64,000 bases of DNA from an uncultured delta proteobacterium (GCA_963796685.1 CAWCMR010000008.1:416001-480000); one strand, 5' to 3'; positions 5,242 through 28,404 are shown, numbered from the stretch's first letter. The notes: generated from the sequence alone by a model not told the origin. Numbers and translations are program-made.

Positions 5242-5296
5242 CGGATCAACTCCTTGGCAGCTCGAACAGCCGTTCTTATAGATTGCCTAGAGGGAC

Positions 5297-5325
5297 AGTG
5301 TCCTTCTAAGGCCAGAACCGGCTCA
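5297..5325 (-). promoter_or_regulatory. Putative ECF promoter TGAGCCG-N15-GGACACT upstream of the CE4-CE1 genes
   Basis: Minus strand TGAGCCG GTTCTGGCCTTAGAA GGACACT, 56 bp before the ATG; one of 5 copies with identical spacing. Confidence 0.75.
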
Positions 5326-5466
5326 CGCCGGATTGCGCCTAAAACGAGAATTTACGTACTCTTCCAAATCGAGTCGCGAATATCTTCGCATCCCTGGACG
5401 CGAACTCTCATTTCTGACCCAAGGGCGCTTGTTGTGCTTGGCAGTTGGGGATAACCTCGGGCGCGT

Positions 5467-6384
5467 ATGCCCCGAAGACGACGCATCGACTGGTCCGTGA
5501 TCCTGCACAAGGACGATCCCATCCCGGTCTGGGGAGGAAACGAGGCACCGTCGGATACGATCGATCTGCTGCTGGCATGCGGCGACCTCTTGACCCTGAA
5601 CGATCGAGATGCCTTGCTCAAGCGGTCGGTCGAGATCGTGCTGCACACGGTGGGATTGGTCCGGGCCGGTGCCTACCTGCTCGACGAGGAGCTCGATTTG
5701 ATGCTGGGCTCGTGGGGCACCGATATGCGCAGAAAGGTCGTGGACGAGCACCACGCCATGTTCAAGCTCGGCGAGCCAGGCCGTCGCGTGTTCAACCGCG
5801 CGCTATCGGGTGAAGCCCATTGGACCATCGTGGAGAATGTCCCGATCATCATCAACGATGTGAATGAAACGAAGATCATCGGTCATGGGTGGGCCGTGTG
5901 TACCCCCATCCGCTCGGCCCGCACCCCCATCGGCATGCTGTACAACGATGCGGCGCTGACCGGCGAACCGGTGGATCCCCGAAAACAGGAGCGCGGCGCC
6001 ATCGTGTGCACCTTGCTCGGGCTTCGTCTCGAAGCGTTGCGGGGCTCTGCCAAAGCCACCTTCGGTCCCTCGGGGAGACACCCCGCGGTCGCCACGGCAC
6101 TGCGCATGCTCACGAGCGACCCGACCCTGGGTGGCAATGTGATTGCCAAGAAGCTCGGCGTCAGCCTCAGCCGCTTTGCCCGGGTGTTCAAGTCGGACAT
6201 GGGGATCTCCCTGGTGGACTACCGCAATCAGCTGCGTCTCGACCGCTTTCTCGGCCTCGTCGACAAGGGTGGCTCGAACCTGCTCGAAGCCGCGCTGGCC
6301 GCCGGCTTCGGCAGCTATTCCCAGTTCCACCGCGTGTTCCGCGCGCTGCGCGGCACAACCCCGCGGACGTACTTTTCGGGCTAG
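5467..6384 (+). CDS. AraC-family transcriptional regulator with GAF-like N-terminal domain
   Basis: C-terminal AraC HTH (AGFGSYSQFHRVFR..GTTPRTY); N-terminal region resembles GAF (CTPIRS..PIGMLY). Confidence 0.85.
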   Translation: MPRRRRIDWSVILHKDDPIPVWGGNEAPSDTIDLLLACGDLLTLNDRDALLKRSVEIVLHTVGLVRAGAYLLDEELDLMLGSWGTDMRRKVVDEHHAMFKLGEPGRRVFNRALSGEAHWTIVENVPIIINDVNETKIIGHGWAVCTPIRSARTPIGMLYNDAALTGEPVDPRKQERGAIVCTLLGLRLEALRGSAKATFGPSGRHPAVATALRMLTSDPTLGGNVIAKKLGVSLSRFARVFKSDMGISLVDYRNQLRLDRFLGLVDKGGSNLLEAALAAGFGSYSQFHRVFRALRGTTPRTYFSG

Positions 6385-6453
6385 CCACCCGGACAACTTG
6401 GGCCAGGAGCATCCGCCAGGGACCTTCGCCAGGCTTGCTGAGTTGACCCTGGC

Positions 6454-8061
6454 ATGGTACGGCAGGCACACATGGAAATTCGTTTGGAGCAGATCGACCC
6501 CGATGCCTTGCGGGTCGTGCAGCGCTTGCTTCGCTACCAACACAAGGCTTACCTGGTCGGCGGCTGCGTGCGGGACCTTCTCCTCGGTCGCAAACCCAAG
6601 GATTTCGACGTTGCCACGTCGGCGACCCCGAATGAGATTCGACGCTGTTTCCGCAACTGCCGCATCATCGGCCGGCGGTTCAGGCTGGCCCACGTCTTTT
6701 TCGGCCGCAAGATCATCGAAACCGCGACGTTTCGCGCCAATCCGCGGGCCGTGGAAGACGAGCCCAACGAGGTGCCTGCCGAAGACAAGGCCGAAGACAG
6801 AAGCGAAGACAGGAGCGAAGACAGGGCTGAGGCTGAAGGCCGGCCGGAGGACAGGCCTGAAGACAAGCCCGATCGCAAGCCTGATGACAAGCCGAACGAC
6901 CTGCTCATACGCCACGACAACGTCTTTGGCACGGAAGAGGAGGACGCCCGTCGGCGCGATTTCACCATCAACGGGCTGTTCTTCGACGTACAGAGCGCCC
7001 AGGTCATCGACCATGTGGCCGGCCTGCCGGATCTCGAGGGCCGCCTGGTGCGCACCATCGGCGATCCCGATATTCGATTTCGCGAAGATCCCGTGCGCAT
7101 CCTGCGCGCGGTGAAGTTCGCCGCACGCTGCGACCTGACCATCGAAGCCGAGACCTACCGCCGCATGATGGAGCACAAGGCCGAGCTGGCCAAGTGCGCG
7201 CAGGCCCGGGTAACCGAGGAATTCTATCGCCTCCTGCGCGCAGGCGCCGCCCGACGATCGTTCGAGCTGCTGTTCGAAACCGGCTTGCTCGAATTCCTGC
7301 TGCCCGAGATGGCGCAGGCTTGGAAGGCCGGCGACGACGATCCCGAGATCAAGCAGCGCATCGAGCGCTTCTGGGCCTATCTGCGTGCCCTCGACGAATC
7401 GATCGCCACGCACGACCAGCCTCCGTCCGATGCCATGATCCTCGCCACCCTGCTTCTGCCACCCCTGCGCGACGCACTCTCCCCCGACGCCGCGCAGATG
7501 CCGAACATGGCGAAGATCGTGTCCGACTCCGTGCAACCGGTCCTCGATCGCCTGAAGGCCTCGCGCCGCGACTCCGAGCTGTGTCGGCAAATTCTGCTGA
7601 CCCTGCGCTACCTTCTTCCCTCGAACCGTCCCGCGCGTCAGCGCGCTCGGCTCGCCAACCGGCCTTTCTACCAGGATGCCGCGTGGCTTGCCGCCATCGT
7701 CGCCCGCGCGGAAGGACTGGAACCTGCCTCTGCCCTCGATGCAGCGGCGAGCGAGGCGCCGGCAGACGGACCCGCCCCCGAGGAAGAGCTTCCGCCCGAG
7801 CTGCTGGTGGACGTGGACAGCGCATCCGGTCGCGGCCGGCGCGACAGACAGCGAGGGCGTCGGACCGAGACGCCTCCGGCGACGGGAATACCATCCCCCG
7901 TGCGCGAGACGCGCGTCGAAATCGCGGCGTCCTGGCAGGCCGGCCCTCGCGTACGCACGCCCATTCCCAACTTGGAAGACCTGGGTTTCCTGCCCTTGCC
8001 GGGACCGGCCTTTCTCGGCCGAGGCAATTTCGGCAGCCGTTGGGCCGCCCGCTCGGATTAG
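6454..8061 (+). CDS. pcnB: Poly(A) polymerase I
   Basis: YLVGGCVRD..PKDFD; PAP-specific IIGRRFRLAHV signature; RRDFTIN; EDPVRILR. Confidence 0.92.
   Translation: MVRQAHMEIRLEQIDPDALRVVQRLLRYQHKAYLVGGCVRDLLLGRKPKDFDVATSATPNEIRRCFRNCRIIGRRFRLAHVFFGRKIIETATFRANPRAVEDEPNEVPAEDKAEDRSEDRSEDRAEAEGRPEDRPEDKPDRKPDDKPNDLLIRHDNVFGTEEEDARRRDFTINGLFFDVQSAQVIDHVAGLPDLEGRLVRTIGDPDIRFREDPVRILRAVKFAARCDLTIEAETYRRMMEHKAELAKCAQARVTEEFYRLLRAGAARRSFELLFETGLLEFLLPEMAQAWKAGDDDPEIKQRIERFWAYLRALDESIATHDQPPSDAMILATLLLPPLRDALSPDAAQMPNMAKIVSDSVQPVLDRLKASRRDSELCRQILLTLRYLLPSNRPARQRARLANRPFYQDAAWLAAIVARAEGLEPASALDAAASEAPADGPAPEEELPPELLVDVDSASGRGRRDRQRGRRTETPPATGIPSPVRETRVEIAASWQAGPRVRTPIPNLEDLGFLPLPGPAFLGRGNFGSRWAARSD
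6781..6894 (+). repeat. Imperfect 12-bp in-frame tandem repeat inside pcnB (EDKA/EDRS/EDKP units)
   Basis: gaagacaaggcc gaagacagaagc gaagacaggagc gaagacagggct ... gaagacaagccc gatcgcaagcct gatgacaagccg. Confidence 0.8.
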
Positions 8062-8067
8062 CCGAGA

Positions 8068-8748
8068 CTACCGCCGGTAGCGCGTCGGATCTCGCTGACC
8101 CGCCCGTTCGAAGCCCTGGCGCCGCAAGATGCAGGCATCGCACGCCCCACACGCCTCTCCCTCGCCCGACGGGTCGTAGCACGAAAGCGTGAGCGCGTAG
8201 TCCACGCCAAGCGCGGTTCCGGCGCGGATGATGTCCGCTTTGCTCATGGCCAAGAGGGGAGCCACCAGCTTCACCGGCTGTCCGGAGACCCCAACGTGGG
8301 TGCCCAGGCGCGCGACCTCCTGCATGGCGGAAAGCCACTCGGGACGGCAATCGGGATAGCCAGAATAGTCGAGAGCATTGATTCCGAGCGCGATCTCTTC
8401 CGCGCCCATGGTTTCGGCCAAGGCCAGTGCATGGGCCACGAAAAGCGTGTTGCGGGCCGGAACGTAGGTCACCGGAATCCCCTGTCCGATGGCTTCTTGG
8501 CTGCGTCCCTTGGGCACTTCACCCCGCCCCGTCAGCGCCGAGCCGGCCAGGCACTGGACATCGATGGCACAAATGCGGTGCGAGGCGGCTCCCAGTTTGC
8601 CGGCGATGCTCGCGGCTGCCTCCAGCTCGACTGCGTGCCTTTGCCCGTAGCGAAAGCTGAGGGCGTGACATTGCCTGCCCTGCGCCAGGCACATGGCGAG
8701 CACGGTCGCCGAATCGAGCCCGCCGGAAAGCAACACGATGGTCTGCAT
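8068..8748 (-). CDS. queC: 7-cyano-7-deazaguanine synthase
   Basis: LLSGGLDS PP-loop, YVPARN, DYSGYPDCR, SCY..CGACDAC. Confidence 0.96.
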   Translation of the reverse strand: MQTIVLLSGGLDSATVLAMCLAQGRQCHALSFRYGQRHAVELEAAASIAGKLGAASHRICAIDVQCLAGSALTGRGEVPKGRSQEAIGQGIPVTYVPARNTLFVAHALALAETMGAEEIALGINALDYSGYPDCRPEWLSAMQEVARLGTHVGVSGQPVKLVAPLLAMSKADIIRAGTALGVDYALTLSCYDPSGEGEACGACDACILRRQGFERAGQRDPTRYRR

Positions 8749-8776
8749 GACCCAAGGTTATTGCATACTCGAGCGC

Positions 8777-9619
8777 ATGACGAAGGGCCGCGATCGATTC
8801 TCGCGCAAGGACGCGGAGGCAGGCTGCCGTGAGCCCTTCCTCGACGCCGAGCTTTACGACTACGAGTACCGCCGGCGCCGGGCCGATATCCATTTCTACC
8901 GGCGGCTGGCGCGCAACCGTCTGGAGTTCGCGGCCGGGCCGGTTCTCGATCTGGCTTGCGGCAGCGGCCGCCTGCTGCTGCCCCTAGTGCGCGACGGGCA
9001 CAGCGTGGTGGGCATCGATCGCTCCTCGGAGATGTTGAGCGCGGCGGCGGAACGAATCCGACGCCTGTCCGCGAGCCGCAGGCAACGGTGCACGCTGGTG
9101 CGCGCCGATTTGCGCACGTACCACCTTGTCGCCAAAGCCGGTTTGGCGATCTCCGCCTTCCACAGCGTGCAACACCTCTTGTCCGACGAGGATATCTTGG
9201 CCTTCCTGCGCACCACGCGGGCCAGCCTCGTGCGCGGCGGTTGGCTGGCTTTCGACGTGCTGCCACCGGATCCAGGCTGGCTCGCCCGCGATCCGAGTCG
9301 TCGCTGGGGCCGAACCACCTTCCGCCACCCGCTGACCGGAGAGCGGCTGGTCTACACCGCCAACCACGTCTTCGACCCGACCTCGCGCCTGCTGCACATG
9401 CGACTCTACTACCAACCGGTCGATGACAAGGGACGCCCGTCGAGCCCGGAACGCACCGTCCGCCTTTGCCATCGCCAGCTCTGGCCAGGCGAGATCAGGC
9501 GCCTGTTGGCGGCGTCGGGTTTTCGACCGATCGAAGCCTTCGCGAGCTTCGACGGCACCCTCCTCGTCGACGATTCCCAAGCGGCCGACGAGCACATCTA
9601 CGTGGCCGTGGCGGTGTGA
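8777..9619 (+). CDS. Class I SAM-dependent methyltransferase
   Basis: VLDLACGSGR motif I, VVGIDRS; start placed at ATG 8777 to avoid overlap with queC. Confidence 0.85.
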   Translation: MTKGRDRFSRKDAEAGCREPFLDAELYDYEYRRRRADIHFYRRLARNRLEFAAGPVLDLACGSGRLLLPLVRDGHSVVGIDRSSEMLSAAAERIRRLSASRRQRCTLVRADLRTYHLVAKAGLAISAFHSVQHLLSDEDILAFLRTTRASLVRGGWLAFDVLPPDPGWLARDPSRRWGRTTFRHPLTGERLVYTANHVFDPTSRLLHMRLYYQPVDDKGRPSSPERTVRLCHRQLWPGEIRRLLAASGFRPIEAFASFDGTLLVDDSQAADEHIYVAVAV

Positions 9620-9644
9620 ACCACGAACCTCCGACGGAAACAGC

Positions 9645-9672
9645 TTGACAGCACTGGGGCCGCAGTTACCAT
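9645..9672 (+). promoter_or_regulatory. Sigma70-type promoter
   Basis: TTGACA-16 bp-TACCAT upstream of the 9718 gene, which also has GGAG RBS-like sequence. Confidence 0.55.
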
Positions 9673-9717
9673 GCGAATGATCTCATTTTCGCCACAACTC
9701 AGACGGAGGGCGGAGTA

Positions 9718-10056
9718 ATGGCCGAGAAAGTCAAGAAGCTAGGGATAACTCGCGACAAGGACTTCATGCTGTATGTGAAAGACGGGGATGTTTGGAGGGT
9801 CCGTCGCAAGCAGCCAGGGGTGTCCAAGGGCAAACCCGAAAAGGTGGCCGACGGCGGGTTCGAGATGGACAACAACTACATCTACTTCGTCGACAGGGAT
9901 GGCGACGTGTCGCGCGCCAAGCGGGCCGTGGGCGGACAGAAGCGCAAGAAGGCCACCAAGAAGAAGGTCGCCAGAAAGCCGGCCAAGAAGAAGGCCGCCA
10001 AGAAGCCGGCCAAGAAGAAGGCCGTCAAGAAGCCGGCCAAGAAGAAGCGACGCTAG
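9718..10056 (+). CDS. Small basic protein: duplicated N-terminal module plus histone H1-like Lys/Ala/Pro tail
   Basis: Internal repeat (GITRDKDFMLYVKDGDVWR / GFEMDNNYIYFVDRDGDVSR); KKPAKKKA repeats. Confidence 0.8.
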   Translation: MAEKVKKLGITRDKDFMLYVKDGDVWRVRRKQPGVSKGKPEKVADGGFEMDNNYIYFVDRDGDVSRAKRAVGGQKRKKATKKKVARKPAKKKAAKKPAKKKAVKKPAKKKRR

Positions 10057-10173
10057 TCCGCTGCTGCCGTTCGTGGCCACATCGAGTCCCTGACGTTCCC
10101 GCACCCGGATGGGTGCGGGGATCCAGGGACGAAACTACGAAGGCGGCAGACCGCGATTGGAGCGACAGGGGCC

Positions 10174-10336
10174 TAAGGGCTCGTCAGAGAATATCTGCAA
10201 CGATTTGGACGCCGATCCATCCCGGCTGGCTTCGTTGCTCGTCGTCGCAATACGTCGAGTATTCCTCCTCCTCGCGCCTCGCCAGCCGGGCGCCTCGTCG
10301 CCCAACTCGTAGCATCTATTCTCTGACGAGCCCTTA
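10174..10336. mobile_element. MITE-like element with terminal inverted repeats and TA target duplication
   Basis: ctaagggctcgtcagagaata (10173-10193) and tattctctgacgagcccttag (10317-10337) form a perfect 21-bp inverted repeat; no transposase inside; internal aatac..gtatt hairpin. Confidence 0.8.
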
Positions 10337-12700
10337 GCGGCGCCGTCGGCGCTTACCGCCGTGCATGCGGCGTTCGAGGCGCTCGCGCCAGATCGGCTGT
10401 GCGGAGGTCCCGTCCTCCGTCGAGTCTTCCTCTGCGGCGACGACCAGCTCTTTCACCTTCTTTGGCTTGACCTCGTCAGTGGCTTTGCCCGTGACCTGGG
10501 TCTTGGCCGGAGCCAGGACTGCTTGCCGGGCGGCCATCATGTCCCAGGCAATCATGACGAACCCGAAGAGCGTCGCCAGGGCCATCCAGGTGTACTGTTC
10601 GTCGAGGCCCGTGGGCATGCCGAAGTTCTTCAGCCCGGCCGCGTTCCGTATCGACGACGGAAGAATCTTCGCCAGCCAATCCGGCATGCCCTGGATGGGC
10701 GCCCAGCCTATGAACTGGGTGAACGCCGTCACCCCCATCAGCCATCTGCCCGCCACCTCGTATCTGGCGTAGAGCAGAGCCACCACGATGAGGAAGGCAT
10801 AGTAGTAGCATGTCAGCTCGGCCCCGAACGCGATCAGGGTCGCGGACAAGGCTGTCGCCACCCACGGATCCTCCCCGCGTACGGCCAAGCCGATGAGCAC
10901 GAGGTAGCAGATGATGATTCCGACGTAGAGGGGCCGCGCTTCGCGGAAGCTCTTCAGGCGGGCCTCCTTCCATCGGCTCCACGGATCCACGAGCTGATCG
11001 TTGCGCATGAGACGTCCGACTTCGGAAGGTCGGTAGTCCAGCACGGTTCGCAAGCCCATGTAGTTGGTCAGCGGGGTTTCCGCGTGCTTGATGGTATTAC
11101 GAAAGAACGCCGGATAGGCTTGCGGTCCGCCCGCGGTCACCACGCTGATGGGCATGAGAATCGCCACCGCCACCGCGGCGCCAATGAAAAAGCGCATGAA
11201 ACGCTTCTCGAGCTCGCGATGCTTGACGTAGTGGTAGCCCGCGGCGAGGAGCGGCGCCACGAACATGAAAACCGGAAAAATGCGCAGCAGGGTCGAGTAC
11301 GCCAGACACATGCCCGCGTAGAAGAAACGCTCCTTCTTGAGCAGGCAGACCGCCGCCACCATCCAGAACAGCCAGTCCCAGCGCAGGAGCGAACCGCCGG
11401 TCCAGTACCAGCGCGAAGGGAAATTGGTGGAAAATACGATGAGCGCCACGGTGAGCGTGCGCCAACCGAAGGCCCACCAGATCATCAACGACAGCAAGAC
11501 GATCAAGATGCAATCGATGCTGTCCAGGATGAGCACCTGGGTTCGACTGGCGGGCCCTAAATTGGTGAGGATGGTGCCCAAGATGTTCCACACCGGCGTA
11601 CCGTTGTACCCGTGGTCGGTCTGGGCGTCATCCCAGCGCCGCGCATTCTCCAGGGTGCGGAAGTAGCGCAGATCGTGTTTGAGGGCTTCCCAGCGCGCGG
11701 GGGTGAAGTGCGATTTGCAACGCTCGGGATGGGCCAAGATGTCGGCGGTGGTTTCAACCACGTTGTTGCGCAAGTTGGTCATCTTGCGCAACTCGACCCG
11801 GCGGCGCAGGTTGGGCTCTTCGCTGTCGGCAACGGCCACGCATTCGTACAAGCGCTCGTAGCTCAGCTCTTTGAAGTACTTCGAGCCGATGTAGTAGTGA
11901 AAGGTGTCCCAGCCGTGGATGAAGTTGGGAAAGTGGAAGGAACCGAAGTTGAAGTAGGTCAAGAAGGCCAGCACCCCCATGACCCCGACGAGCGCGTTGC
12001 GCACGCGCCTTCTCGCCGCCAACCGACCCGCATCGCTCAGCTTGCGCTCCCACCACAGGAACGCAATCCCCAGCATGGCCAGGATGAGCTCCCAGCGCGC
12101 ACTGGCATCGTTGTCCCAGTAGTCGAGCAGTTTCTTGGGCGGTACCGCTGCTACAGGCGCGTCCACGACCTTCATCGCGGCCGGGAATGGCGTCGGCACC
12201 TGGCAGTAGGCCGCAACCTCCGAAATCGAGTAGAAGCTGTCGCCGACGCCCTCGCCCACGCGGATGAAACGCGCCGGCATGCCGCCCACGTTGAGCACCC
12301 GGGTCCGCAAGCCGTGGTTGGGCACGGGATCGATTTGCCCGAACACCTTGTAGTCCTTGCCGTCGAGCGAGCCCCAGACGGTGTAGGTGTCGTTGGCATC
12401 GGCCTGGATGGCGAAAGAGCGCAGGTTGGTGACTTGGCCCAGATCCCAGGTCACGGTCGAGGCGCCGGTGTCCAGGATGACCGCGGGCGCGGAATCCCAC
12501 ATCGAGCCTTCAGGCGTTACTTGCTCGTCGGTGAGCAGGCTCAGCTCGCGTCGCACATCCAGCCACTGGACGGGCAGCTTGTGGGCCAGAAGGTTGCCCT
12601 CGGGACAGGCCGGAACCTGGGAAAGATTTTGAGCGCTCGCCGGTGATGGCGAGGTCAGGAGCAGAAACAGGGGCAAAAGGCCCAGAGCAAGGCGTCGCAT
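10334..12700 (-). CDS. Multi-pass membrane protein: N-terminal discoidin/F5-8C-like domain plus GT-C (GT87-like) glycosyltransferase region
   Basis: Signal peptide; VTWDLG..YTVWGSLDG..ARFIRV..SISEV discoidin-like pattern; many TM helices; LLRIFP motif. Confidence 0.6.
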   Translation of the reverse strand: MRRLALGLLPLFLLLTSPSPASAQNLSQVPACPEGNLLAHKLPVQWLDVRRELSLLTDEQVTPEGSMWDSAPAVILDTGASTVTWDLGQVTNLRSFAIQADANDTYTVWGSLDGKDYKVFGQIDPVPNHGLRTRVLNVGGMPARFIRVGEGVGDSFYSISEVAAYCQVPTPFPAAMKVVDAPVAAVPPKKLLDYWDNDASARWELILAMLGIAFLWWERKLSDAGRLAARRRVRNALVGVMGVLAFLTYFNFGSFHFPNFIHGWDTFHYYIGSKYFKELSYERLYECVAVADSEEPNLRRRVELRKMTNLRNNVVETTADILAHPERCKSHFTPARWEALKHDLRYFRTLENARRWDDAQTDHGYNGTPVWNILGTILTNLGPASRTQVLILDSIDCILIVLLSLMIWWAFGWRTLTVALIVFSTNFPSRWYWTGGSLLRWDWLFWMVAAVCLLKKERFFYAGMCLAYSTLLRIFPVFMFVAPLLAAGYHYVKHRELEKRFMRFFIGAAVAVAILMPISVVTAGGPQAYPAFFRNTIKHAETPLTNYMGLRTVLDYRPSEVGRLMRNDQLVDPWSRWKEARLKSFREARPLYVGIIICYLVLIGLAVRGEDPWVATALSATLIAFGAELTCYYYAFLIVVALLYARYEVAGRWLMGVTAFTQFIGWAPIQGMPDWLAKILPSSIRNAAGLKNFGMPTGLDEQYTWMALATLFGFVMIAWDMMAARQAVLAPAKTQVTGKATDEVKPKKVKELVVAAEEDSTEDGTSAQPIWRERLERRMHGGKRRRRR

Positions 12701-12706
12701 GACCGC

Positions 12707-13291
12707 TCAGTCTATCCTGCTCGTGGCCTCGGCGTAACCTGCCGAGAACACCTTCGTGTAACCCAGCGCACTGTAGTATCCGGCGGCGATTCCCAACCCT
12801 ACCGCCAGGCGCCCTAAATGCCCGAGGTAAGGCTCGGCCGCCGGCACGAGCGCGCTGATGGATAGATAGGTAGGAAAGAAACCCCACATGATGAGGTTGG
12901 TCTTCACCTTGCCGGCCAGGCTGCTCGGAATGTTCATGCGCGCCCCGGCCATGAATCGGCGCAGGCACGTGACCCAGAACTCCCGGAACAGGTACAGGAA
13001 GATGATGTACGGGGGAAAGAAGCCTTGCAAGGTCGCGATGATGAGGATGAACGCCTCGAAGCAGAGGTCGCAGAACTGGTCCAGGATCTCACCCAGCCGG
13101 GTGACCTGCTTGGTGCGGCGGGCGATGTACCCGTCGAGGTAGTCGGTCACGCCGGCCAGAATCGCGAGCGCGATGCCGACGCCGTGCGACACGTAGAAGT
13201 ACACCAACACACCCAGCCAAAGAAGCACGATTCGCGACAACGTAATGATGTTCGGTAAGGTCCGAAGGTCATCCCTGATGGTCGAGCCCAT
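12707..13291 (-). CDS. pgsA: CDP-alcohol phosphatidyltransferase (PgsA-like)
   Basis: PNIITLSR and TDYLDGYIARR..G..LDQFCD signature. Confidence 0.85.
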   Translation of the reverse strand: MGSTIRDDLRTLPNIITLSRIVLLWLGVLVYFYVSHGVGIALAILAGVTDYLDGYIARRTKQVTRLGEILDQFCDLCFEAFILIIATLQGFFPPYIIFLYLFREFWVTCLRRFMAGARMNIPSSLAGKVKTNLIMWGFFPTYLSISALVPAAEPYLGHLGRLAVGLGIAAGYYSALGYTKVFSAGYAEATSRID

Positions 13292-13358
13292 GGCCCTTTG
13301 ATACCACGAACGGGCCCCGGATTGGCCGAACTGGTCCTCCTGCCTGTACTCTTAGGGG

Positions 13359-14684: not shown

Positions 14685-14707
14685 GCCCGTCTTCGCCCAC
14701 GCTTCCG

Positions 14708-15608
14708 CTATAGACCGTCGGCCTTGAACCGCCTCGGCGTCACCCCGAAGCTCTTGCGAAACACCTTGCCGAAGTAGTTCGGGCTGCTGAAGCCGCATCG
14801 ATACGCCATGTCCTTGAGCGAGTACCCGCCGGTCCGGATCAGGTTCGTCGCGTGCTCCAAACGCAAGCGAAGGAGATAGCGGGCCGGGGACGTTCCCCAG
14901 ACCTTGCGAAACTTGCGCGAGAAATGGAACTTGCTCAATTTCGCGACCTGCGCCATCTCGCCGACCCCGATGGGGCGTGCGAGATTCTGACGGCAATAGG
15001 CCTCGACTTCGCCGACGAACGGAGGCGCAGCCCGCGATGGACGCGCCGGAGCATCCGCATGCGACCTACTCTCGTTCAAGAGCTCCATGAGAACGGCATA
15101 GGCAAGCCTCGAGCCGTGGTAAGGCGACTCGATCTTGTGCTCCAGGCCGTCCGCACACGCTTCGGCCGCGCGTGCCAGCGTCGGCGAGTCGGCCGGCAAT
15201 TCCACGATTGGGCCCACCTTGTCGGCAATTCCTCGAATGCACCTGATCACCTCCCTGCCGGCAAGGGTGAGGTAGAAGAACTCCCATTGCTCGCCCTCCT
15301 CGATCCAGCACTGCTCTTCGTGCGGGAAGTAGAGCAACATGGCCTGTCCTGGCTCGACCGACACCTGCCGCTCGAAGAAAGCGCACGTGCCCGCGCCCGC
15401 TCACGGTGTATTGAATGGCGGCCAGTCCGCCGCTGCTCCCCTGCAGACCGCTCCACTTCTGGCTGGGTCCCTTCCCGACCTGGAACCCCACGCTGTGAAT
15501 CTGCGCCGGCAGCGACGCCACCAAGTCCGGAAACACCATGGATTCCTGGTGCCCAAGCTTCTGGAGCCGCGCGATGCCTGGCACACCTGAAACATCACAC
15601 CTGGACAT
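14708..15608 (-). CDS. AraC-family regulator; apparent +1 frameshift near 15378-15380
   Basis: Upstream frame (..QYTVSGRGHVR) joins the downstream frame (FFERQVSVEPGQAMLL..AraC HTH GFSSPNYFGKVFRK) if one T is removed; GGAGGAG RBS before ATG 15608. Confidence 0.82.
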
Positions 15609-15702
15609 GGCGCTCCTCCAAGAATGTCCTGAGAACGAACAGACGGATCTTCATGGAAACCTCCTCGGGATCGGAACTGTCGCGGACCTGAAACAAGCAC
15701 AT

Positions 15703-15731
15703 AGTGTCCACGTGGGGCACATTTCGGCTCA
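15703..15731 (-). promoter_or_regulatory. Putative ECF promoter TGAGCCG-N15-GGACACT upstream of the AraC gene
   Basis: Minus strand TGAGCCG AAATGTGCCCCACGT GGACACT. Confidence 0.75.
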
Positions 15732-15817
15732 TGCGGATCCGGTTTCGAATCCGATTTCATGGGATGGGGGACGTGACCGAGCGCAATCGCGGAACGGCCC
15801 GCTGCCGAGGTGAGTCG

Positions 15818-17513
15818 CTATTTCGTGAACAGCGTCAAGTCGACCGTCTCGCCCATCTTCTGATAGCCAGCAGGCCCCGGGTGAAGTCCATCTGTTGACC
15901 CTGCTGGATTCCCCGGGGTCCAAGCGGCGTAGGTCGACTGCAACGCCGGAGGACTCTTGCCATCCGTGAGCGCGGCATCGAAATCGATGACGCCGTCGAA
16001 CACCCCGCTCTTGATATATGTGTTGACCTGTTGGCGGACGCTCTCATGACCCGAGCTGTAGTAGCTGTTCCCGTAAAATGGAGTAATGGTTGCTCCGAAG
16101 ATGAGCACACCCTTTGCGTGTGCCTGGCTGATTAGCTGGTCGTAGGCAGCTTTCAGGGAATCGAATGTGGCGTTATTGCTACAGATGTCGTTGACTCCAT
16201 CGAAAACGACCGCGTACTTCACGCCGCTTTGCCCGAGCACGTCGCGCGCGAAGCGACCTTCAGCTCCGGTGCCGTTCCCAATCAGATTGGTCGCGCCGAT
16301 CCCCTGATTCATGGTCGCGACGTTCGCGGTGGCGGCGTTCGCCTGTAGCCGTGCGGCCATGAAGTCCGTCCACCGGTTGTTCTTGTCGTTGTCCGTTCCC
16401 CTGCCGTCGGTGATGGAATCGCCAATCGCGACGACGCCCTTGGCGGAGGCATCGGCCATGACGTCGATGCCCGAGATGTAGTACCAGTGCTGGAACGTCG
16501 TCGCGGATGTCATGCTGGCCGCGTTGAGAGCGGTGCTGCCGCCTGCCAGGTAGGACGTGGTCCTCGAGCCCGAGTGGCCGACGACCTGGCTCGGCACGCT
16601 CCCGAAGGACGTGGTGATGGTAATGTTCCCTTGATTGGGGACGATGAAGTCAATCGGGTCGGACCAGACTTCCTTGTTCTGTGCGATGGTCACCGAGGCG
16701 GTTCCCGAGAAGGCAAGGGCCTTGTCGGTCGAGGTATCGATGGTGCTGTCCACGGTCGGAGTGGCCTTGCAAAGCGCGATATGGGCCGAATTGATGGTGA
16801 CCGATCCATTGCCTCCCAGGTTGGAAAATTGCACGCGAAGCTGGCTGCCACCCAGTGAGACGTGCGTGACCTGACGAAGCACGCTATTCGCCAGCGACGA
16901 CGGAGGCTGGTTGCCCGAATCGTAGTACGGCGAGGCGGTCCAAGTGCCCACCCAGTGCTGCGTTCCCGTGCCGCCGCCCGTCCCGGAGCTACCACCCGAG
17001 CCACCTCCGTCCGCACCGCCCGTTGCCCCGCCAGCGCCACTGGCGCCGCCGGTTGATTTGGTTCCGCCGCTGCCCGCGCCGCCGGACCCGGTCGTGCCAC
17101 CCAATCCTGATGCTCCGCCGCTGCCGCTCGAATCCAGCCATGCCGCCCGCGCCCGAACCACCGTTTCCACCGCCCGCGCCGCCGGCCTTCGAGTTTCCGC
17201 CCTGCCCGCCACCCCCCGTGCCTCCGCCCCCGGCGCTGCCACCTGTTGCACTCCCGCCCTGCCCTGAGGCCCCGGCCGAGGCCTGACCGCCCGAACCCGT
17301 CGTGCCGCCAGCCGAGACACCGCCCGAACCGGAGACACCCCCTGTCGTGCTGCCACCGTGGCCGGATCCACCGTGGCTGCTGGACGCACCAGCCCCTCCA
17401 CCGCTGCCACCGCCCTTCCCGCCTTCGCCGCCGGAGCCGCCACCGTTTGAAGAGCAGCCGACCAGCAACGCGGCGGTAGCAAGGACACGCAACACACTTC
17501 GACTGCTGCTCAT
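15818..17513 (-). CDS. SGNH/GDSL hydrolase lipoprotein (carbohydrate-esterase-like); apparent +1 frameshift near 17131
   Basis: Lipobox LVGC and Gly linker in one frame; HWVGTW, IGDSITDG, GVND, DGLHP in the other; frames join on removing one T (GGATTCG). Confidence 0.85.
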
Positions 17514-17575
17514 CAGACGGATCCTCCTGGGCTTGGGCGAAATCGAGCCATGGCGACCGCAGATTATTCTCGGCC

Positions 17576-17604
17576 AGTGTCCGCGAGTAGCACTTTCCGG
17601 CTCA
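17576..17604 (-). promoter_or_regulatory. Putative ECF promoter TGAGCCG-N15-GGACACT upstream of the SGNH gene
   Basis: Minus strand TGAGCCG GAAAGTGCTACTCGC GGACACT, 63 bp before the ATG. Confidence 0.75.
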
Positions 17605-17657
17605 TGCGATGTCCAGCCGCAAGGGTGTACGCCGCGCAACGACGGCGCGCCGACCGC

Positions 17658-18365
17658 TCAAGGCTCGAAGCGCAAGTCGTCGATCCAGATGTCGAACTGC
17701 TGGCGTGGGTAGATGATGAAGCCGACCAGCTGATCGCGTCGCATGGGGACCAGGGGGTTGCCGAAACCGCTTTGCGCCATCTGATTGAAGCGAATCACGA
17801 AACGCTGCCAGCTGTGAGAAAGCGGAACCTTCGCGGCATAGAAATCCATGCACACCGTGCATCCGCCGCTGTTCCAGGCGTTATCCATGGTCGTCAGCCC
17901 CATGGGCACCGCGAATTCGGGGCCATTGTCGCTGCCAAAGGCGGCCCAGAATGAAATACCGCTCCACTTGCTTCCGTCGTAGGGCAACGCGGTGGAGCTG
18001 CTGCTACGAAAAACAGCGGTCCAGTTGTTGCCCCAGCTCGTGAAGCCCCTGGCCGCAAAGTGGCCGGAGAACTTTCCGCGAGCCACACACTGCGGCGAAA
18101 CCTCGTCGATGAGCTTGCCCGAAGAGCCATCCGAGCCGAGAATCCATGAGCCGTCCCTCCCTGAAACCTGGGCGAGGCGATAGTCCCCGGATTCGAAGTC
18201 GTCGATGAGGCGATCGGCGGGTTCGGCTGCGTAGCTTTCAGGTCCACGCAACGGCTGATCCGGACAGACGGGGTCGACTTCGATCGGCTCCACTGAAGGG
18301 CCGCATCCGAGGCAGATCTGTACTGCGACGAGCACGAAAACGCACGTAGCACCCCAACGTACCAT
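17658..18365 (-). CDS. CBM11-like carbohydrate-binding lipoprotein (copy 1)
   Basis: Lipobox LGC; LIDDFE, YDGSKWSGISFWA, WQRFVIRF, FDIWIDDLRF patterns of a galactose-binding-like fold. Confidence 0.7.
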   Translation of the reverse strand: MVRWGATCVFVLVAVQICLGCGPSVEPIEVDPVCPDQPLRGPESYAAEPADRLIDDFESGDYRLAQVSGRDGSWILGSDGSSGKLIDEVSPQCVARGKFSGHFAARGFTSWGNNWTAVFRSSSSTALPYDGSKWSGISFWAAFGSDNGPEFAVPMGLTTMDNAWNSGGCTVCMDFYAAKVPLSHSWQRFVIRFNQMAQSGFGNPLVPMRRDQLVGFIIYPRQQFDIWIDDLRFEP

Positions 18366-18443
18366 TGTGGACTGAGCCGATCAGGCTTGACGTTGAGACT
18401 ACACAGGATGTCGCGGAAGCGGTAGGGAGAATGGATGCGAGCG

Positions 18444-18472
18444 TGAGCCGGTTTCATCTCCTGGGGAACACT
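18444..18472 (+). promoter_or_regulatory. Putative autoregulatory ECF promoter of cassette 1
   Basis: TGAGCCG GTTTCATCTCCTGGG GAACACT, 50 bp before the sigma ATG. Confidence 0.72.
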
Positions 18473-18521
18473 GCCGAATGAATCGAAAGAAGATTACCGG
18501 ACCCAAGAAGACTGCCGGAAG

Positions 18522-19133
18522 ATGCTTACGCCCTTAACCTTCGTCGGTGACGAGCACGCGCTGTTGCAGGCGCTGCGCGCCGGACACCCCGGTGCCGCCG
18601 CGACGTTCTATGACCAGCACGCCGCACACGTGAGCCGAACCCTGCGTTCGGCGCTCGGGGCCGACGAGGAAATTCCGGACCTGCTGCAGGAAGTCTTCAT
18701 TCGGGCCATCGACGGCATCGGCAAGTTGCGCGAGGTCGACCGCGTTGGCGGTTGGCTGACCACCATCGCGATCTTCGTGGCGCGCGCCCAGATACGACGA
18801 CGCGCGCGCCGCAGTTGGCTTCGCGCGTTTTCGCCCGAGCACGCCGGCCCGCAACATCAAGAACAGCCCTCATCGGAAGCGCGCGCCGCACTCCGCGAGG
18901 TCTACGCCGTTCTGGGACAGATCCCCCTCGACGAACGCATGGCATTCACCCTGCGGTACATCGAAGGAATGACCCTACCGGACGCGGCAGAGGCCTGTGA
19001 GACCTCGCTGGCCACATTCAAGCGCAGGCTATCACGCGCCGAAAAACGATTCCTTGAAGCGGCCAGCAAGCGGCCGGTCCTGGAACAATGGCTGAAGGAA
19101 GGGACGCGATGGAACGTCCAGAAAAAGAGCTAG
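18522..19133 (+). CDS. ECF sigma-70 factor (copy 1)
   Basis: Region 2 DLLQEVFI..WLTTIA; region 4 ERMAFTLRYIEGMTL.....C..SLATFKRRLSRA. Confidence 0.92.
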   Translation: MLTPLTFVGDEHALLQALRAGHPGAAATFYDQHAAHVSRTLRSALGADEEIPDLLQEVFIRAIDGIGKLREVDRVGGWLTTIAIFVARAQIRRRARRSWLRAFSPEHAGPQHQEQPSSEARAALREVYAVLGQIPLDERMAFTLRYIEGMTLPDAAEACETSLATFKRRLSRAEKRFLEAASKRPVLEQWLKEGTRWNVQKKS

Positions 19134-20335
19134 CCGAATTCGGATCAGCGGTACGCGAGGCGCTCACGGGCGAGGCCTCGACGAGCGAAGAGATCCGGCA
19201 AGCGCGCGCCGGATTCCTTCAGCATTTCGCCGCGGGCGGCAAAGCAGACGCCGGGTGGGGACGCCGAACCGAGGGGCGCCGCTGGCGCTTTTGGGCGCTT
19301 GCCGGAGCGACGATCGCAGGGGCCGTGGCGCTATGGGCATGGACCACCCGCCCCATCACCTTCCAGGTCGGGGCGTCGGGCACCCCCGGCCAGACCGGCG
19401 ACCTCGTGCGCGGCGCCTCCGAAGGACTGGTCCCGATACGCTTCTCCGAGGGAAGCTCGGTCATTCTGCATGAGGGCACCCGCCTGCGAGTGCTGGCCAC
19501 TGACAACCGCGGCGCACGCATGCTGATCGAGGATGGCACGGTGGATGCGAGCATCGCCAGCGCGACCATCGGCAAGAAGCACTGGAGCTTCGAAGCGGGA
19601 CCCTTCAAGGTCCAGGTGACCGGTACCCGGTTCACGCTGACCTACCGGGCGCATGACCAGTCTTTCGGTCTCGCGACCCACGAGGGGCGGGTCATCGTCT
19701 CGGGCCCTTGCCTAATCGCACCGACGCCCGTGGCGGCGGGTAGCCGACTGGATCTGTCGTGCCTGGCCCGGCGACCGATGGCCCTCCAAACGGCGAGCCT
19801 GTCGCCGCTCCCGTCGGCCGGAACCGAGCACACGGATATCCCCGCGTCGTCGGACAAGGCCGTGCGCACCCCCCAAAGCTGGCGCGAGCTGCTGGCAACC
19901 GGACACCTGCTGGACGCGGTGCGCGCCGCCGAGCGAGCCGATTTCAATCGCGTGTGCCAGACCGCGAGCGCGAAGGATCTGCTGGCTTTGGCCGACGCTG
20001 CCCGGCTTTTCGCGCGCACGGCGAGAGCGGTCACTGCCCTAAGCGCGTTGCGTCGTCGCTTTCCTGCCTCGTCCGAGGCTTCCACCGCGGCCTTCGCGCT
20101 CGGACGCATCGCCTTCGAGCAGAAGCGCGACTACCCGGAGGCCGTCGATTGGTTCACGACCTACCTGCACGAACAGCCTGGCGGGCCGCTACACGGTGAC
20201 TGCGTTGGACGCCTGATGGAGGCCAAGCTTCGTGCAGGCGACCAAGGCGGGGCGCATGCGGATGCGGAACATTACTTGCGCCGATTCCCGGAAGGGCCCT
20301 ACGCTTCGGAAGCGCGAGGCATTCTGGCGAAGTGA
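19109..20335 (+). CDS. FecR-domain anti-sigma factor with C-terminal TPR (copy 1)
   Basis: Single TM after Arg-rich stretch; FecR motif AGPFKVQVTGTRF; TPR AFALGRIAFE; 25-bp overlap with the sigma gene. Confidence 0.85.
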   Translation: MERPEKELAEFGSAVREALTGEASTSEEIRQARAGFLQHFAAGGKADAGWGRRTEGRRWRFWALAGATIAGAVALWAWTTRPITFQVGASGTPGQTGDLVRGASEGLVPIRFSEGSSVILHEGTRLRVLATDNRGARMLIEDGTVDASIASATIGKKHWSFEAGPFKVQVTGTRFTLTYRAHDQSFGLATHEGRVIVSGPCLIAPTPVAAGSRLDLSCLARRPMALQTASLSPLPSAGTEHTDIPASSDKAVRTPQSWRELLATGHLLDAVRAAERADFNRVCQTASAKDLLALADAARLFARTARAVTALSALRRRFPASSEASTAAFALGRIAFEQKRDYPEAVDWFTTYLHEQPGGPLHGDCVGRLMEAKLRAGDQGGAHADAEHYLRRFPEGPYASEARGILAK

Positions 20336-21381
20336 GACGCGATCGCTCCAAACCACCGTGGCGTGGATTCGTCGGGGCCAGGTCTGTCCTGGTCCTGGCG
20401 GCGGCGTTGTCCATCGCCAGCGCGATCCCGGTCGCGGCGCGCGCCGAGGAACCTCAGGCGCTGCGTGTTCTGCTGATCATCGACCGACCCAACGACCCCC
20501 TGATGGCTCGCATCCAGGCCGAGATCGTCGCGCTTGGGCTCACGGTGGTGAGCAGCAGCGCAAGCGGTCCCCTCGAAATCAGCGCACGCGAGCAACGCGC
20601 GGTCGCGGCGGTACGTGAGTTGCCTTCGCACAAGGGTGTCGAGTTATGGATGGCGGATGTGACGACCGGCCGCACGCTCACGCGGCAGCTCATCGTGGAC
20701 GAGCAGCCGGAGGGACCGGATCAAACCCTCGTGGCCATGCAGACCGCAGAGGTCCTGCGCACCGGGCTCTTCCCCAAAGCGAACAAAGCCGTGTCAGGGT
20801 CTGCAAGCGCGCCCGCGACGCCGTCGCCCCCCATCACGACGCCGGCCGCCCCGGCACCAACCGAGGAGACCCGGGTCCGGGCCGGCATCGGCGGCCTGTA
20901 CAGCCTCGGCGGTGCGGACACCGCGCTGCAGGCCTGGCTCTCGCTGCAGCGACGCTGGCGGCACCGTCTCCACATCGCCCTCACCTTGAGCGGGCCGATT
21001 GTCCGTGGCTCGATTTCTGGACCAGAGGGGCGCTCTTTAGTTGGGGCCTACCTGGCCGGCGCCGAGCTTCGTTTCAGCTTTCTCAAAGACGATCCGCACT
21101 GGTTGCTGACCGGTGGCTTGGGTGGCGGCGTCGCCGACCTCCGCACCGAGGGACGCAGCAACCAGCCCCTCGAACAGGCAACGTCGAGCGCTTTCACGGG
21201 CGTGGGCTACGCCCTGGTCGAGCTGGGCTTGAAGCTCTCGACCTCGGCGCGGCTTGGCATTGCGGGGACCGCGGGCACCACCTTCGCGCCCGTGACCATT
21301 CGCTTCGCAGGCAACCACGCAGGCACCTGGGGTAGCCTGCTGCTGGCGATGTTCATGCAGCTCGGCATGGACTGGGAATAG
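20332..21381 (+). CDS. Secreted protein with probable C-terminal outer-membrane beta-barrel (copy 1)
   Basis: Signal peptide, Pro-rich linker, alternating hydrophobic strands, aromatic C-terminus (MQLGMDWE); GTGA overlap with FecR. Confidence 0.65.
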   Translation: MRRDRSKPPWRGFVGARSVLVLAAALSIASAIPVAARAEEPQALRVLLIIDRPNDPLMARIQAEIVALGLTVVSSSASGPLEISAREQRAVAAVRELPSHKGVELWMADVTTGRTLTRQLIVDEQPEGPDQTLVAMQTAEVLRTGLFPKANKAVSGSASAPATPSPPITTPAAPAPTEETRVRAGIGGLYSLGGADTALQAWLSLQRRWRHRLHIALTLSGPIVRGSISGPEGRSLVGAYLAGAELRFSFLKDDPHWLLTGGLGGGVADLRTEGRSNQPLEQATSSAFTGVGYALVELGLKLSTSARLGIAGTAGTTFAPVTIRFAGNHAGTWGSLLLAMFMQLGMDWE

Positions 21382-21408
21382 AAACACCTTGCAGAAGGAA
21401 TGAGACCT

Positions 21409-21437
21409 TGAGCCGTTTTGCCGCGCTTGCGGACACT
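21409..21437 (+). promoter_or_regulatory. Putative autoregulatory ECF promoter of cassette 2
   Basis: TGAGCCG TTTTGCCGCGCTTGC GGACACT. Confidence 0.75.
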
Positions 21438-21480
21438 TCCAAGGGGGGGCCAAGGGGCCTCTTCCCTGGTCCGGTGAAGG

Positions 21481-24466: not shown

Positions 24467-24571
24467 TCAAGCCCCGCGGACTGCCCAGCCCGGTGGCCCG
24501 ATACCGCGGGCTGCGATTTGTGTTACGGTTTCGCCCGGCCCCCGCGGCCGTCCTATTACGAGGGAGAAATC

Positions 24572-25465: not shown

Positions 25466-25468
25466 CGG

Positions 25469-28384: not shown

Positions 28385-28404
28385 AGGGCGTCTGAAAAGT
28401 GCGT

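Follow-up and report, generated by a model that had tools for sequence, protein, structure and literature searches.

What reads a DNA element that recurs five times within 16 kb, each time ahead of a gene, in the neighbourhood of two sigma factor genes? The question is raised by a 64,000-nucleotide stretch from an uncultured delta proteobacterium (GCA_963796685.1, CAWCMR010000008.1:416001-480000; hereafter the window, G000:C8:416001-480000 in our designation of genomes, contigs and loci by G, C and L). The genome to which it belongs, G000, comprises 7,309,768 bases in 26 contigs, with 65% G+C and a completeness of 88.6%. A first-pass annotation of the window had described the bipartite element TGAGCCG-N15-G(G/A)ACACT and had taken it for the promoter of two extracytoplasmic function (ECF) sigma factors encoded there, named sigma1 and sigma2 in the following. 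As judged from sequence comparisons, the element is most likely indeed the promoter read by these two neighbouring sigmas, which would drive their own synthesis and that of a small set of secreted enzymes; we consider this interpretation of promoter and regulon highly probable.

A pattern scan for TGAGCCG-N15-GRACACT yielded five exact matches in the window, all with the fixed 15-nt spacer and all at the places first described, and none in 100 dinucleotide-preserving shuffles (mean 0.00, maximum 0). Allowing up to two mismatches revealed no additional copy in the window. The whole genome (7.3 Mb) contains six exact copies, the sixth being C14:85540-85568(+). All five window copies are intergenic and have the same orientation as the next gene, whose first start codon follows after a gap of 43-62 nt, so the earlier description of intergenic elements pointing into the downstream gene holds. 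A sigma-70 consensus scan of positions 5000-24900 was uninformative (one promoter-like site, at 9645, outside the five gaps; shuffle mean 2.3), and terminator-like sites in the same interval numbered 12 versus 13.0 by chance. A weaker motif-like site, TGAGCCGATCAGGCTTGACGTTGAGACT (N17, one mismatch), precedes the sigma1 promoter by 71 nt, at 18373-18400(+); its counterpart in G002 is altered in both boxes, and the site could be a second promoter or a chance occurrence.

Recurrence of this kind might be accidental, or the copies might be remnants of a duplicated or mobile segment that has no regulatory role. A same-spacer variant, TGAGCC[G/T]TGGCGACGAATTCCCGGACACT, found at G001:C7:15137 and G001:C7:158734 and, with one change, at G000:C25:11790-11818, could be cited in favour of such an origin; no recognisable gene lies downstream of these sites in either genome, and the variant is probably part of a repeated sequence, not a promoter. 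The six exact copies show a different picture. Compared in 15 pairs, their flanks have a mean identity of 0.26 in the 40 nt upstream and 0.235 in the 40 nt downstream, where 0.27 is expected, and their spacers have a mean identity of 0.37. Because the flanks are at random identity, a duplicated segment or mobile repeat is excluded as the source of the motif. In addition, the motif is absent from all shuffles, and at orthologous positions in many genomes the boxes are conserved while the spacers diverge. Chance or a functionless remnant is therefore an extremely improbable explanation.

The proteins that would recognize the motif are encoded directly behind copies 4 and 5. Both sigmas consist only of sigma-70 regions 2 and 4, within about 200 residues, as is typical of ECF (group 4) sigma factors, and score 64.4 and 66.4 bits against TIGR02937 (cut-off 42.9). 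Directly downstream of each a putative membrane anti-sigma factor with a FecR domain is encoded, an arrangement kept in relatives, and upstream of each lies the bipartite -35/-10 motif, which is conserved in the orthologues. Among solved structures the sigma profile agrees best with sigma-E-type proteins; the match to Rhodobacter RpoE (2q1z) is weak (E 5.1e-07). Sigma1 and sigma2 are 65-66% identical and form the sole close pair among at least 28 ECF-like open reading frames (ORFs) of the genome. In a single-protein scan, which found five loci, the nearest named records with the sigma were 'uncultured delta proteobacterium', 'Proteobacteria bacterium' and 'Polyangia bacterium'. In view of these records, of the Polyangia or Myxococcota names of homologues of a neighbouring lipoprotein and of the 87 Ser/Thr kinase matches of the genome, we take G000 for a metagenome-assembled genome of the Polyangia (Myxococcota) and the sigma clade for one of this class.

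Phylogenetic footprinting strongly supports the view that the motif would be the cognate, autoregulated promoter of both sigmas. Homologues of the sigmas were sought in 41 related genomes at E<=1e-20 and were found in 32. The 450 nt upstream of 30 homologues from 30 genomes were then examined for a relaxed motif, defined as TGAGCC (up to one substitution)-N17/18-ACACT (up to one substitution). It occurs on the coding strand of 22 of the 30 loci, 14 of them with the exact sequence, in contrast to 2 of 30 on the opposite strand (exact, 1 of 30), none in the reversed sequence (exact, also none) and a mean of 1.52 (maximum 6 of 30) in 200 mononucleotide shuffles. All loci with a sigma identity of at least 41% are motif-positive except L016 and L017. 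The boxes, unlike the spacers, are retained even ahead of homologues that share only about 37-40% identity; the distance between TGAGCC and ACACT is N18 within the genus and N17 in other genera and families, and spacer sequences vary freely. The extended consensus of the genus is roughly TGAGCCGGTTTC...G.GGACACTG.CG, and in the sequence logo the boxes reach to about TGAGCCGgTtTc ... G.ggACACTg.cg, with a T-rich stretch directly after the -35 box, a feature common in ECF promoters. The residues of the region-4 recognition helix (S162, T165, K167, R168, L170) are invariant in 15 aligned sigmas down to 38% identity, which would match the constancy of the -35 box.

The motif also tracks the presence of the sigma. 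In G004, a 99% complete genome of the same genus, neither a sigma match at E<=1e-20 nor a motif hit was obtained. G012 contains only a distant sigma homologue, and its two motif hits are of the background type: they are without the flanking G's and fall at ORFs for a PHO4 phosphate transporter and an S13 peptidase (D-Ala-D-Ala carboxypeptidase). In the genus, the 11-base core occurs 42 times as compared with 18 times for the reversed control, and G follows TGAGCC in 37 of the 42 hits. Individual copies are likewise retained: at the site orthologous to copy 1 in G002 both boxes are kept and the spacer is different, equivalents of copy 2 lie ahead of the intact AraC orthologue of G002 and of AraC genes in three further genomes (G005, G008, G009), and a site equivalent to copy 3 is present in G002. 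In several targets the ATG of a signal peptide lies only 7-11 nt past ACACT (G000:C25:1039504-1039541, corresponding to L032 1005-1042; L113, L123, L120, L116, L097). Transcripts of such targets would be leaderless or nearly so, and this arrangement indirectly places the start of transcription, which may lie a few nucleotides after ACACT.

As a fallback, the first-pass annotation had named an AraC-type operator, and one can envisage that the motif is the binding site of a transcription factor such as an AraC-family protein of the window. Two AraC genes adjoin motif copies, one divergent from copy 1 and one downstream of copy 2, and AraC genes recur beside the motif in G002, G005, G008 and G009. 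An operator does not account, however, for the asymmetry of the motif, its constant co-orientation with the downstream gene at a promoter-like distance, and its location upstream of sigma homologues in the 22 of 30 loci across families. G010 and G011 keep the motif before the sigma, and no orthologue of the target AraC was found in them with this query (E<=1e-30). Furthermore, the AraC gene is itself a target and is frameshifted in this genome, and where the ATG follows the motif after 7-11 nt there is no space for a separate downstream promoter. The operator is thus disfavoured and is in our estimation improbable.

An ECF-type promoter could, alternatively, be read by another sigma of the genome, and the sigma1 and sigma2 operons would then merely belong to the regulon of that sigma. 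Candidates exist among the at least 28 ECF-like ORFs, and five further sigma/FecR-type pairs are present, two of which, more distant from sigma1 and sigma2, have related boxes upstream: TGAGCTG...CTACACT at C8:123189 for the pair C8:122452-123216 (L071), and TGAGCCGTTCC...GGGAACTG for the pair at C25:155078, in which the -35 box is the same and the -10 box different. These sequences suggest a graded family of promoter specificities among the ECF paralogues. Against another sigma stand the low identity of the five further pairs to sigma1 (only about 30-35%) and their deviating -10 or -35 boxes. In the genomes compared, it is specifically orthologues of sigma1 and sigma2 that the motif accompanies, and it was not found in G004, where no match to the sigma was obtained at E<=1e-20. 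Autoregulation is, moreover, the usual arrangement of ECF sigma factors according to the relevant passages of PMC7826278. Recognition by a different sigma is unlikely, and the motif is best regarded as the promoter of sigma1 and sigma2. The features of the window that belong to the proposed system are compiled in Table 1.

Table 1 Proposed promoter copies, sigma operons, presumed target genes and accompanying genes of the window (positions counted from its first nucleotide)
Feature	Position	Strand	Evidence and remarks
Secreted Esterase_PHB-family esterase, second gene of the operon	2197..3762	-	Pfam Esterase_PHB, E 3.8e-14; Gly/Ser-rich region
Lipoprotein with Gly/Ser-rich linker and polysaccharide deacetylase domain	3796..5241	-	Pfam Polysacc_deac_1, E 1.6e-10
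Promoter copy 1 (TGAGCCG-N15-GGACACT)	5297..5325	-	Before the CE4/PHB-esterase operon, in the gap to the divergent AraC gene; 55 nt to the CE4 ATG at 5241
AraC-family gene	5467-6384	+	Pfam; divergent from copy 1
AraC-family regulator, cupin-like N-terminal domain and HTH_18	14708..15608	-	Pfam; gene split near 15381 by an additional C that G002 does not have
Upstream open reading frame (uORF), 19 codons	15594..15653	-	Own GAGGAGG Shine-Dalgarno sequence; overlaps the AraC start codon
Promoter copy 2	15703..15731	-	Before the uORF and the AraC gene; 48 nt to the uORF ATG at 15653, 94 nt to the AraC ATG at 15608
SGNH/GDSL esterase lipoprotein	15818..17513	-	Pfam Lipase_GDSL_2, E 5.2e-21 (ORF 15818-17497)
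Promoter copy 3	17576..17604	-	Before the SGNH esterase gene; 62 nt to the SGNH ATG at 17513
235-residue lipoprotein, predicted CBM11/CBM30/CBM4-like beta-sandwich	17658..18365	-	Divergent from sigma1; adjoins the module in close relatives
Promoter copy 4	18444..18472	+	Before sigma1 (putative autoregulation); 49 nt to the sigma1 start
ECF sigma factor 1 (sigma1), 203 residues	18522..19133	+	Pfam Sigma70_r2, Sigma70_r4_2; NCBIfam TIGR02937
Anti-sigma factor 1	19088..20335	+	Short cytoplasmic N-terminus, hydrophobic span ~67-86, FecR, C-terminal tetratricopeptide repeats (TPR); Pfam FecR 26.9 bits (cut-off 24), TPR_16
349-residue protein, predicted barrel	20332..21381	+	Signal peptide, periplasmic alpha/beta domain ~45-146, Pro/Ala linker, 8-stranded OmpA/OmpX/OmpW-like barrel
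Promoter copy 5	21409..21437	+	Before sigma2; 43 nt to the first sigma2 ATG, 91 nt to the Met aligning with the sigma1 start
ECF sigma factor 2 (sigma2)	21481..22140	+	Pfam Sigma70_r2, Sigma70_r4_2; phmmer; Met at 21529 aligns with the sigma1 start
Anti-sigma factor 2	22095..23375	+	Paralogue of anti-sigma factor 1
Paralogue of the 349-residue barrel protein, third gene of the sigma2 operon	23372..24466	+	phmmer, E 5.4e-70
Paralogue of the CBM-like lipoprotein	27667..28395	+	phmmer, E 6e-59; 3 kb beyond the sigma2 operon

The gene labels of the first-pass annotation were largely confirmed by Pfam. They require correction in that the SGNH and AraC genes each contain an apparent 1-nt frameshift and that the esterase previously called CE1 scores as an enzyme of the polyhydroxyalkanoate (PHA) depolymerase type. 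The CAZy names used here (CE4, CE1, CE15, PL1, PL3, CE8, GH28) are assigned by general Pfam-to-CAZy correspondence and not by a tool; on this basis we take the deacetylase to be a CE4 enzyme. The C-terminus of the esterase encoded behind it ends, after a long Gly/Ser region, with GCGC, a hydrophobic stretch and RRRR, in a manner reminiscent of MYXO-CTERM, a sorting tag of myxobacteria. Many targets at the family level, as well as the CE4, SGNH, C14 and C15 targets, likewise possess long Gly/Ser linkers. In the SGNH gene the reading frame of the lipoprotein signal and Gly/Ser linker differs from that of the catalytic part, with the apparent frameshift near 17132-17140. The C-terminal half of the AraC protein corresponds to ORF 14708-15364(-), and G002, with a sigma identity of 98%, has an intact ORF of 329 residues. 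In G002 the equivalent uORF and the AraC gene overlap through an ATGA stop/start sequence, which hints that expression of the AraC gene is translationally coupled to the uORF or attenuated by it.

Outside the window the gene behind the sixth exact copy, on C14, encodes a 659-residue lipoprotein, one stretch of which is weakly FGE-sulfatase-like. The gene of a second Esterase_PHB protein has a copy with N17 spacing at C25:1039504, 7 nt ahead of its ATG, and a copy with one mismatch (GCACT) at C15:267987 precedes a glucuronoyl esterase gene, which has an apparent frameshift at about 268160-268190 (L069 ~260-290). With six exact copies and two near-copies the regulon in this genome would be small. 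The apparent frameshifts could be assembly indel errors or reflect real decay; two of the three fall within the Gly/Ser-rich linker that joins the signal peptide to the catalytic domain. The near-copy on C15 was retained from a loose genome scan (TGAGCC-N17/18-ACACT, up to one mismatch, with crude gene calls of our own), and the glucuronoyl esterase family is also a target in G005 and G008. Two other near-sites of the scan were not adopted, one before a 429-residue ORF without a family and one, judged to be background, 187 nt upstream of an SpvB-domain ORF (915 residues, C13:94223-96970(-), L070, E 6.1e-27).

The targets in related genomes widen the picture. Within the genus, 30 loci were fetched of the 42 core hits. 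Sigma genes lie downstream at eight of them, AraC genes at five, and esterase or glycosidase genes at nine (two deacetylases, two GDSL/SGNH esterases, two glucuronoyl esterases and one each of Esterase_PHB, GH5 and GH30); four loci have downstream ORFs without a family and four are background-like. Outside the genus, 40 sites were picked of 64 hits in a choice that favoured the extended motif, which biases the list of targets; the downstream ORFs were clustered, only the 20 cluster representatives were scanned, and the counts are by cluster. Sigma operons account for six of these sites, Pectate_lyase_4 for five, Pectate_lyase for two, Pectinesterase, GH28 and GH30 for one each, the PF00756 esterase for two, transketolase for three, lectin/LamG-like proteins for three, and other or unknown genes for 16. 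Pectin and hemicellulose enzymes are thus encoded downstream of 12 of the 40. The designation as a polysaccharide-de-esterification regulon proposed at first suits the genus, where CE4, SGNH, glucuronoyl and PHB-type esterases are found along with GH5, GH30 and AraC. It is too narrow for the family, whose most frequent targets are pectate lyases, pectinesterase and GH28; the de-esterification regulon represents one form of a broader response to plant cell walls. The transketolase sites occur in one sister genus (L093 and L095 in G018, L106 in G049), with the motif 160-200 nt upstream. In the window, aldolase genes occupy 24518-27562(+), between the sigma2 operon and the second CBM-like lipoprotein; they encode a DeoC/LacD aldolase followed by an Aldolase_II-SDR fusion, which we assume to resemble rhamnose-catabolic genes, and fit a pectin context.

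Several points weigh against a promoter of sigma1 and sigma2 with the regulon described. The sigma homologues of L016 and L017 are 41-44% identical and lack the motif, and no sigma homologue of 34% identity or less has it upstream. The related genomes are not independent, and presence/absence and the genus counts serve as consistency checks, not as statistics. Across the family (31 genomes) the bare 11-base core was found 87 times as compared with 47 times for the reversed control, a ratio of about 1.9. To this is added the biased choice of sites outside the genus. In G000 three of the eight presumed targets (AraC, SGNH and the C15 glucuronoyl esterase) are apparently frameshifted, and the esterase labelled CE1 reaches 254.9 bits against NCBIfam NF050058 (extracellular short-chain PHA depolymerase type 1 catalytic domain; cut-off 150), so a polysaccharide substrate is not certain. 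In the genome-wide check for enrichment proposed in the first-pass annotation, variants with one mismatch are not clearly enriched: 12 of 83 lie upstream of genes, and two control patterns gave 5 of 96 and 6 of 88. Because these variants are barely enriched, the regulon cannot be extended by the loose scan.

If the sigmas control enzymes that act outside the cell, how could they be informed about the substrate? Each sigma gene overlaps its anti-sigma gene by 46 nt, and the gene of the 349-residue protein begins with a 4-nt overlap of the anti-sigma factor 1 stop; the order sigma, anti-sigma, 349-residue protein is kept in relatives. Pfam and NCBIfam scans of the 349-residue and the 235-residue proteins gave no hit, and none of the 44 database homologues of the 349-residue protein has a Pfam domain. 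The AlphaFold2 model of the latter has a mean pLDDT (predicted local distance difference test) of 75.3, with about 90 in the barrel (residues 180-349) and low confidence in the linker. A Foldseek search with the barrel retrieved NspA, OmpX, OmpW and the OmpA transmembrane domain at TMt 0.63-0.71. The predicted fold is that of a small outer-membrane barrel, in which a signal peptide is combined with a C-terminal 8-stranded antiparallel barrel. A likeness of the model to TolB was disregarded, the Foldseek TM being just 0.20-0.24.

The 235-residue lipoprotein is modelled as a beta-sandwich (pLDDT 76.7, predicted template-modelling score 0.75). Foldseek ranked CBM11 first (carbohydrate-binding module, CBM; E 3.2e-08, TMt 0.64), followed by CBM30, CBM4 and CBM22. 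A language-model look-up gave CBM30 as the lead in the Atlas, and two homologues are named 'carbohydrate binding domain'; homologues of the lipoprotein carry Polyangia or Myxococcota names. By its predicted fold the lipoprotein appears CBM-like, and glycan binding is putative. Complex prediction with the periplasmic part of the anti-sigma (88-415) and the periplasmic domain of the 349-residue protein (40-150) reached a score of 0.76, and the best of three controls 0.00. In the calibration of the method, solved complexes attained this mark in 58 of 80 cases and mismatched pairs in 2 of 110, a comparison that is rough here since the alignments were our own. At least 58% of the contacts are shared between runs, the partner pLDDT is at least 80, and the predicted contacts are on the TPR (269-408) and on residues invariant in both alignments; they include residues 303-307 and 333-340 of the anti-sigma and 60-64 and 132-137 of its partner. 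The models support a putative binding of the anti-sigma TPR to the periplasmic domain of the 349-residue protein. Complexes of TPR with a small domain have been solved before (BamD-type), and part of the score may therefore reflect likeness to them. No Plug domain, indicative of a TonB-dependent receptor, was found in the window; of the 16 in the genome the nearest on C8 are at 285780 and 691574. Similarly, none of the 87 Pkinase matches of the genome, the mark of Ser/Thr kinases, lies within C8:416001-480000.

The motif, its rarity and positions, its conservation ahead of sigma homologues and the nature of the genes behind it are direct observations, and from these elements the following course of events can be proposed. 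The core TGAGCC-N18-ACACT, in the form found in this genus, would be the -35/-10 promoter of an ECF sigma clade of the Polyangia, and the window would contain two paralogous copies of the system, one with sigma1 and one with sigma2. At rest the anti-sigma factor, a single-pass protein of FecR and TPR translated together with its sigma, would keep each sigma at the inner membrane. A signal, presumably a polysaccharide, would release the sigma, which would direct RNA polymerase to the five promoters of the window and about three elsewhere. The output would comprise the own operon, in a positive feedback, probably the operon of the paralogue, and the AraC-family regulator as a second regulatory tier. 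The enzymes formed would be secreted or lipid-anchored: the CE4-type deacetylase and the esterase of the PHB-esterase type, the SGNH esterase, the second PHB-type esterase, the glucuronoyl esterase and the 659-residue lipoprotein. In sister genera the same sigma clade, using a motif shorter by one base, may control pectate lyases, pectinesterase, polygalacturonase and GH30, and from these pectinase and GH30 targets the system would be a response to plant cell-wall polysaccharides. More tentative is the idea of a previously undescribed, TonB-independent trans-envelope glycan sensor conserved in the Polyangia. The CBM-like lipoprotein would capture a plant cell-wall fragment, the barrel protein would dock on the TPR of the FecR-type anti-sigma and relay the signal, and the freed ECF sigma would read TGAGCC-N17/18-ACACT; duplication of the four-gene module and retargeting of promoters would have created genus-specific regulons, esterases here and pectinases in sister genera. 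We regard this complete scheme as possible but rather doubtful.

ECF sigma factors are the most numerous alternative sigmas, and most groups are without a known signal, promoter or regulon. Here sequence allows a signal, a promoter and a regulon to be proposed for one clade, which occurs in uncultured Polyangia of soil. The promoter is precise, rare and conserved, which makes it directly testable and, together with its sigma, a potential orthogonal pair; it can also be used to annotate secreted carbohydrate-active enzymes (CAZymes) and lipoproteins of unknown function in these genomes. The regulon points to the deconstruction of plant cell walls, namely of pectin and of acetylated or glucuronoyl-esterified xylan, and the conserved set of partners suggests sensing without a TonB-dependent transducer.

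Among known promoters the closest is that of the ECF11 type (Rhodobacter RpoE / PSPTO_1043), TGATCC-N16-CGTA, which is experimentally supported (PMC5507510). Its -35 box differs at one position from TGAGCC, and the same N16 separates it from a 4-base -10 core (TGAGCC-N16-GRAC). Because of this identical geometry the -35 box without AAC, to which the first-pass annotation had drawn attention, is not anomalous. One PSPTO_1043 site supported by chromatin immunoprecipitation reads TGAgCC (PMC5507510); in the literature searched, as far as the passages on such promoters extend, TGAGCC as an ECF box occurred only as this one variant site in the PSPTO_1043 table. The systems differ in the -10 box (CGTA there, G(G/A)AC-ACT here), in the anti-sigma, which is of the ChrR type there and of the FecR type here, and in the regulon, which serves the singlet-oxygen stress response there.

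In its architecture the system resembles FecI/FecR/FecA cell-surface signalling: a signal would cross the envelope through a single-pass anti-sigma whose FecR domain is periplasmic and, by way of an ECF sigma, reach an autoregulated regulon. Unlike in that system, no TonB-dependent transducer accompanies the pair, with no Plug match in the window, and the co-operonic outer-membrane partner is a predicted small 8-stranded barrel with a periplasmic domain. The anti-sigma has an additional C-terminal TPR, and the sigma scores 37.7 bits against the NCBIfam ECF_sigma_FecI model (cut-off 260), far from the FecI clade.

RsgI anti-sigma factors of the Gram-positive envelope sense polysaccharides via carbohydrate-binding modules fused to the anti-sigma, and SigI is not strictly an ECF-group sigma. 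The SigI/RsgI systems of Clostridium thermocellum are similar to that described here in that paralogous sigma/anti-sigma pairs with autoregulated promoters control distinct CAZyme regulons (PMC10766802, PMC10328401), and a pectin-degrading regulon has been predicted in a related species (PMC10766802). In contrast to RsgI, the CBM-like domain here resides on a separate lipoprotein and the anti-sigma ends in TPR. Control of CAZymes by ECF/anti-sigma pairs is described as canonical in Bacteroides, Cytophaga and Clostridium thermocellum (PMC10766802). In the polysaccharide utilization loci of Bacteroides and in Cytophaga hutchinsonii such pairs switch on glycan-degrading enzymes in response to the glycan, and the Bacteroides systems frequently regulate SusC/D-type TonB-dependent transporters (PMC10766802). 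The present module belongs to a different phylum, has a different set of partners and lacks SusC/D genes. The literature searches turned up no publication that connects an ECF sigma with the breakdown of polysaccharides in the Myxococcota.

The group to which sigma1 and sigma2 may belong is ECF267. As characterized in the passages on this group in PMC7826278 (Casas-Pastor et al. 2021), it comprises 28 proteins, 100% from Proteobacteria, with a FecR-like anti-sigma that contains TPR; it lies near ECF02 in the tree, has a conserved Ser/Thr kinase in the genomic neighbourhood, and its mode of regulation is called 'unclear'. The combination of FecR and TPR in the anti-sigma agrees with this description, the lineage fits ('delta proteobacterium' and 'Polyangia' being the nearest records) and, loosely, so do the sigma-E-type nearest solved relatives. 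The published kinase neighbour has no counterpart in the 64-kb window. If the sigmas do belong to it, the motif may already be listed as the predicted promoter of the group, and a TonB-independent sensor, if true, would supply the orphan group ECF267 with a function as well as a regulator. Control of CAZymes by ECF/anti-sigma pairs is an established principle, of which the particular promoter, lineage and partner set described here constitute a variant.

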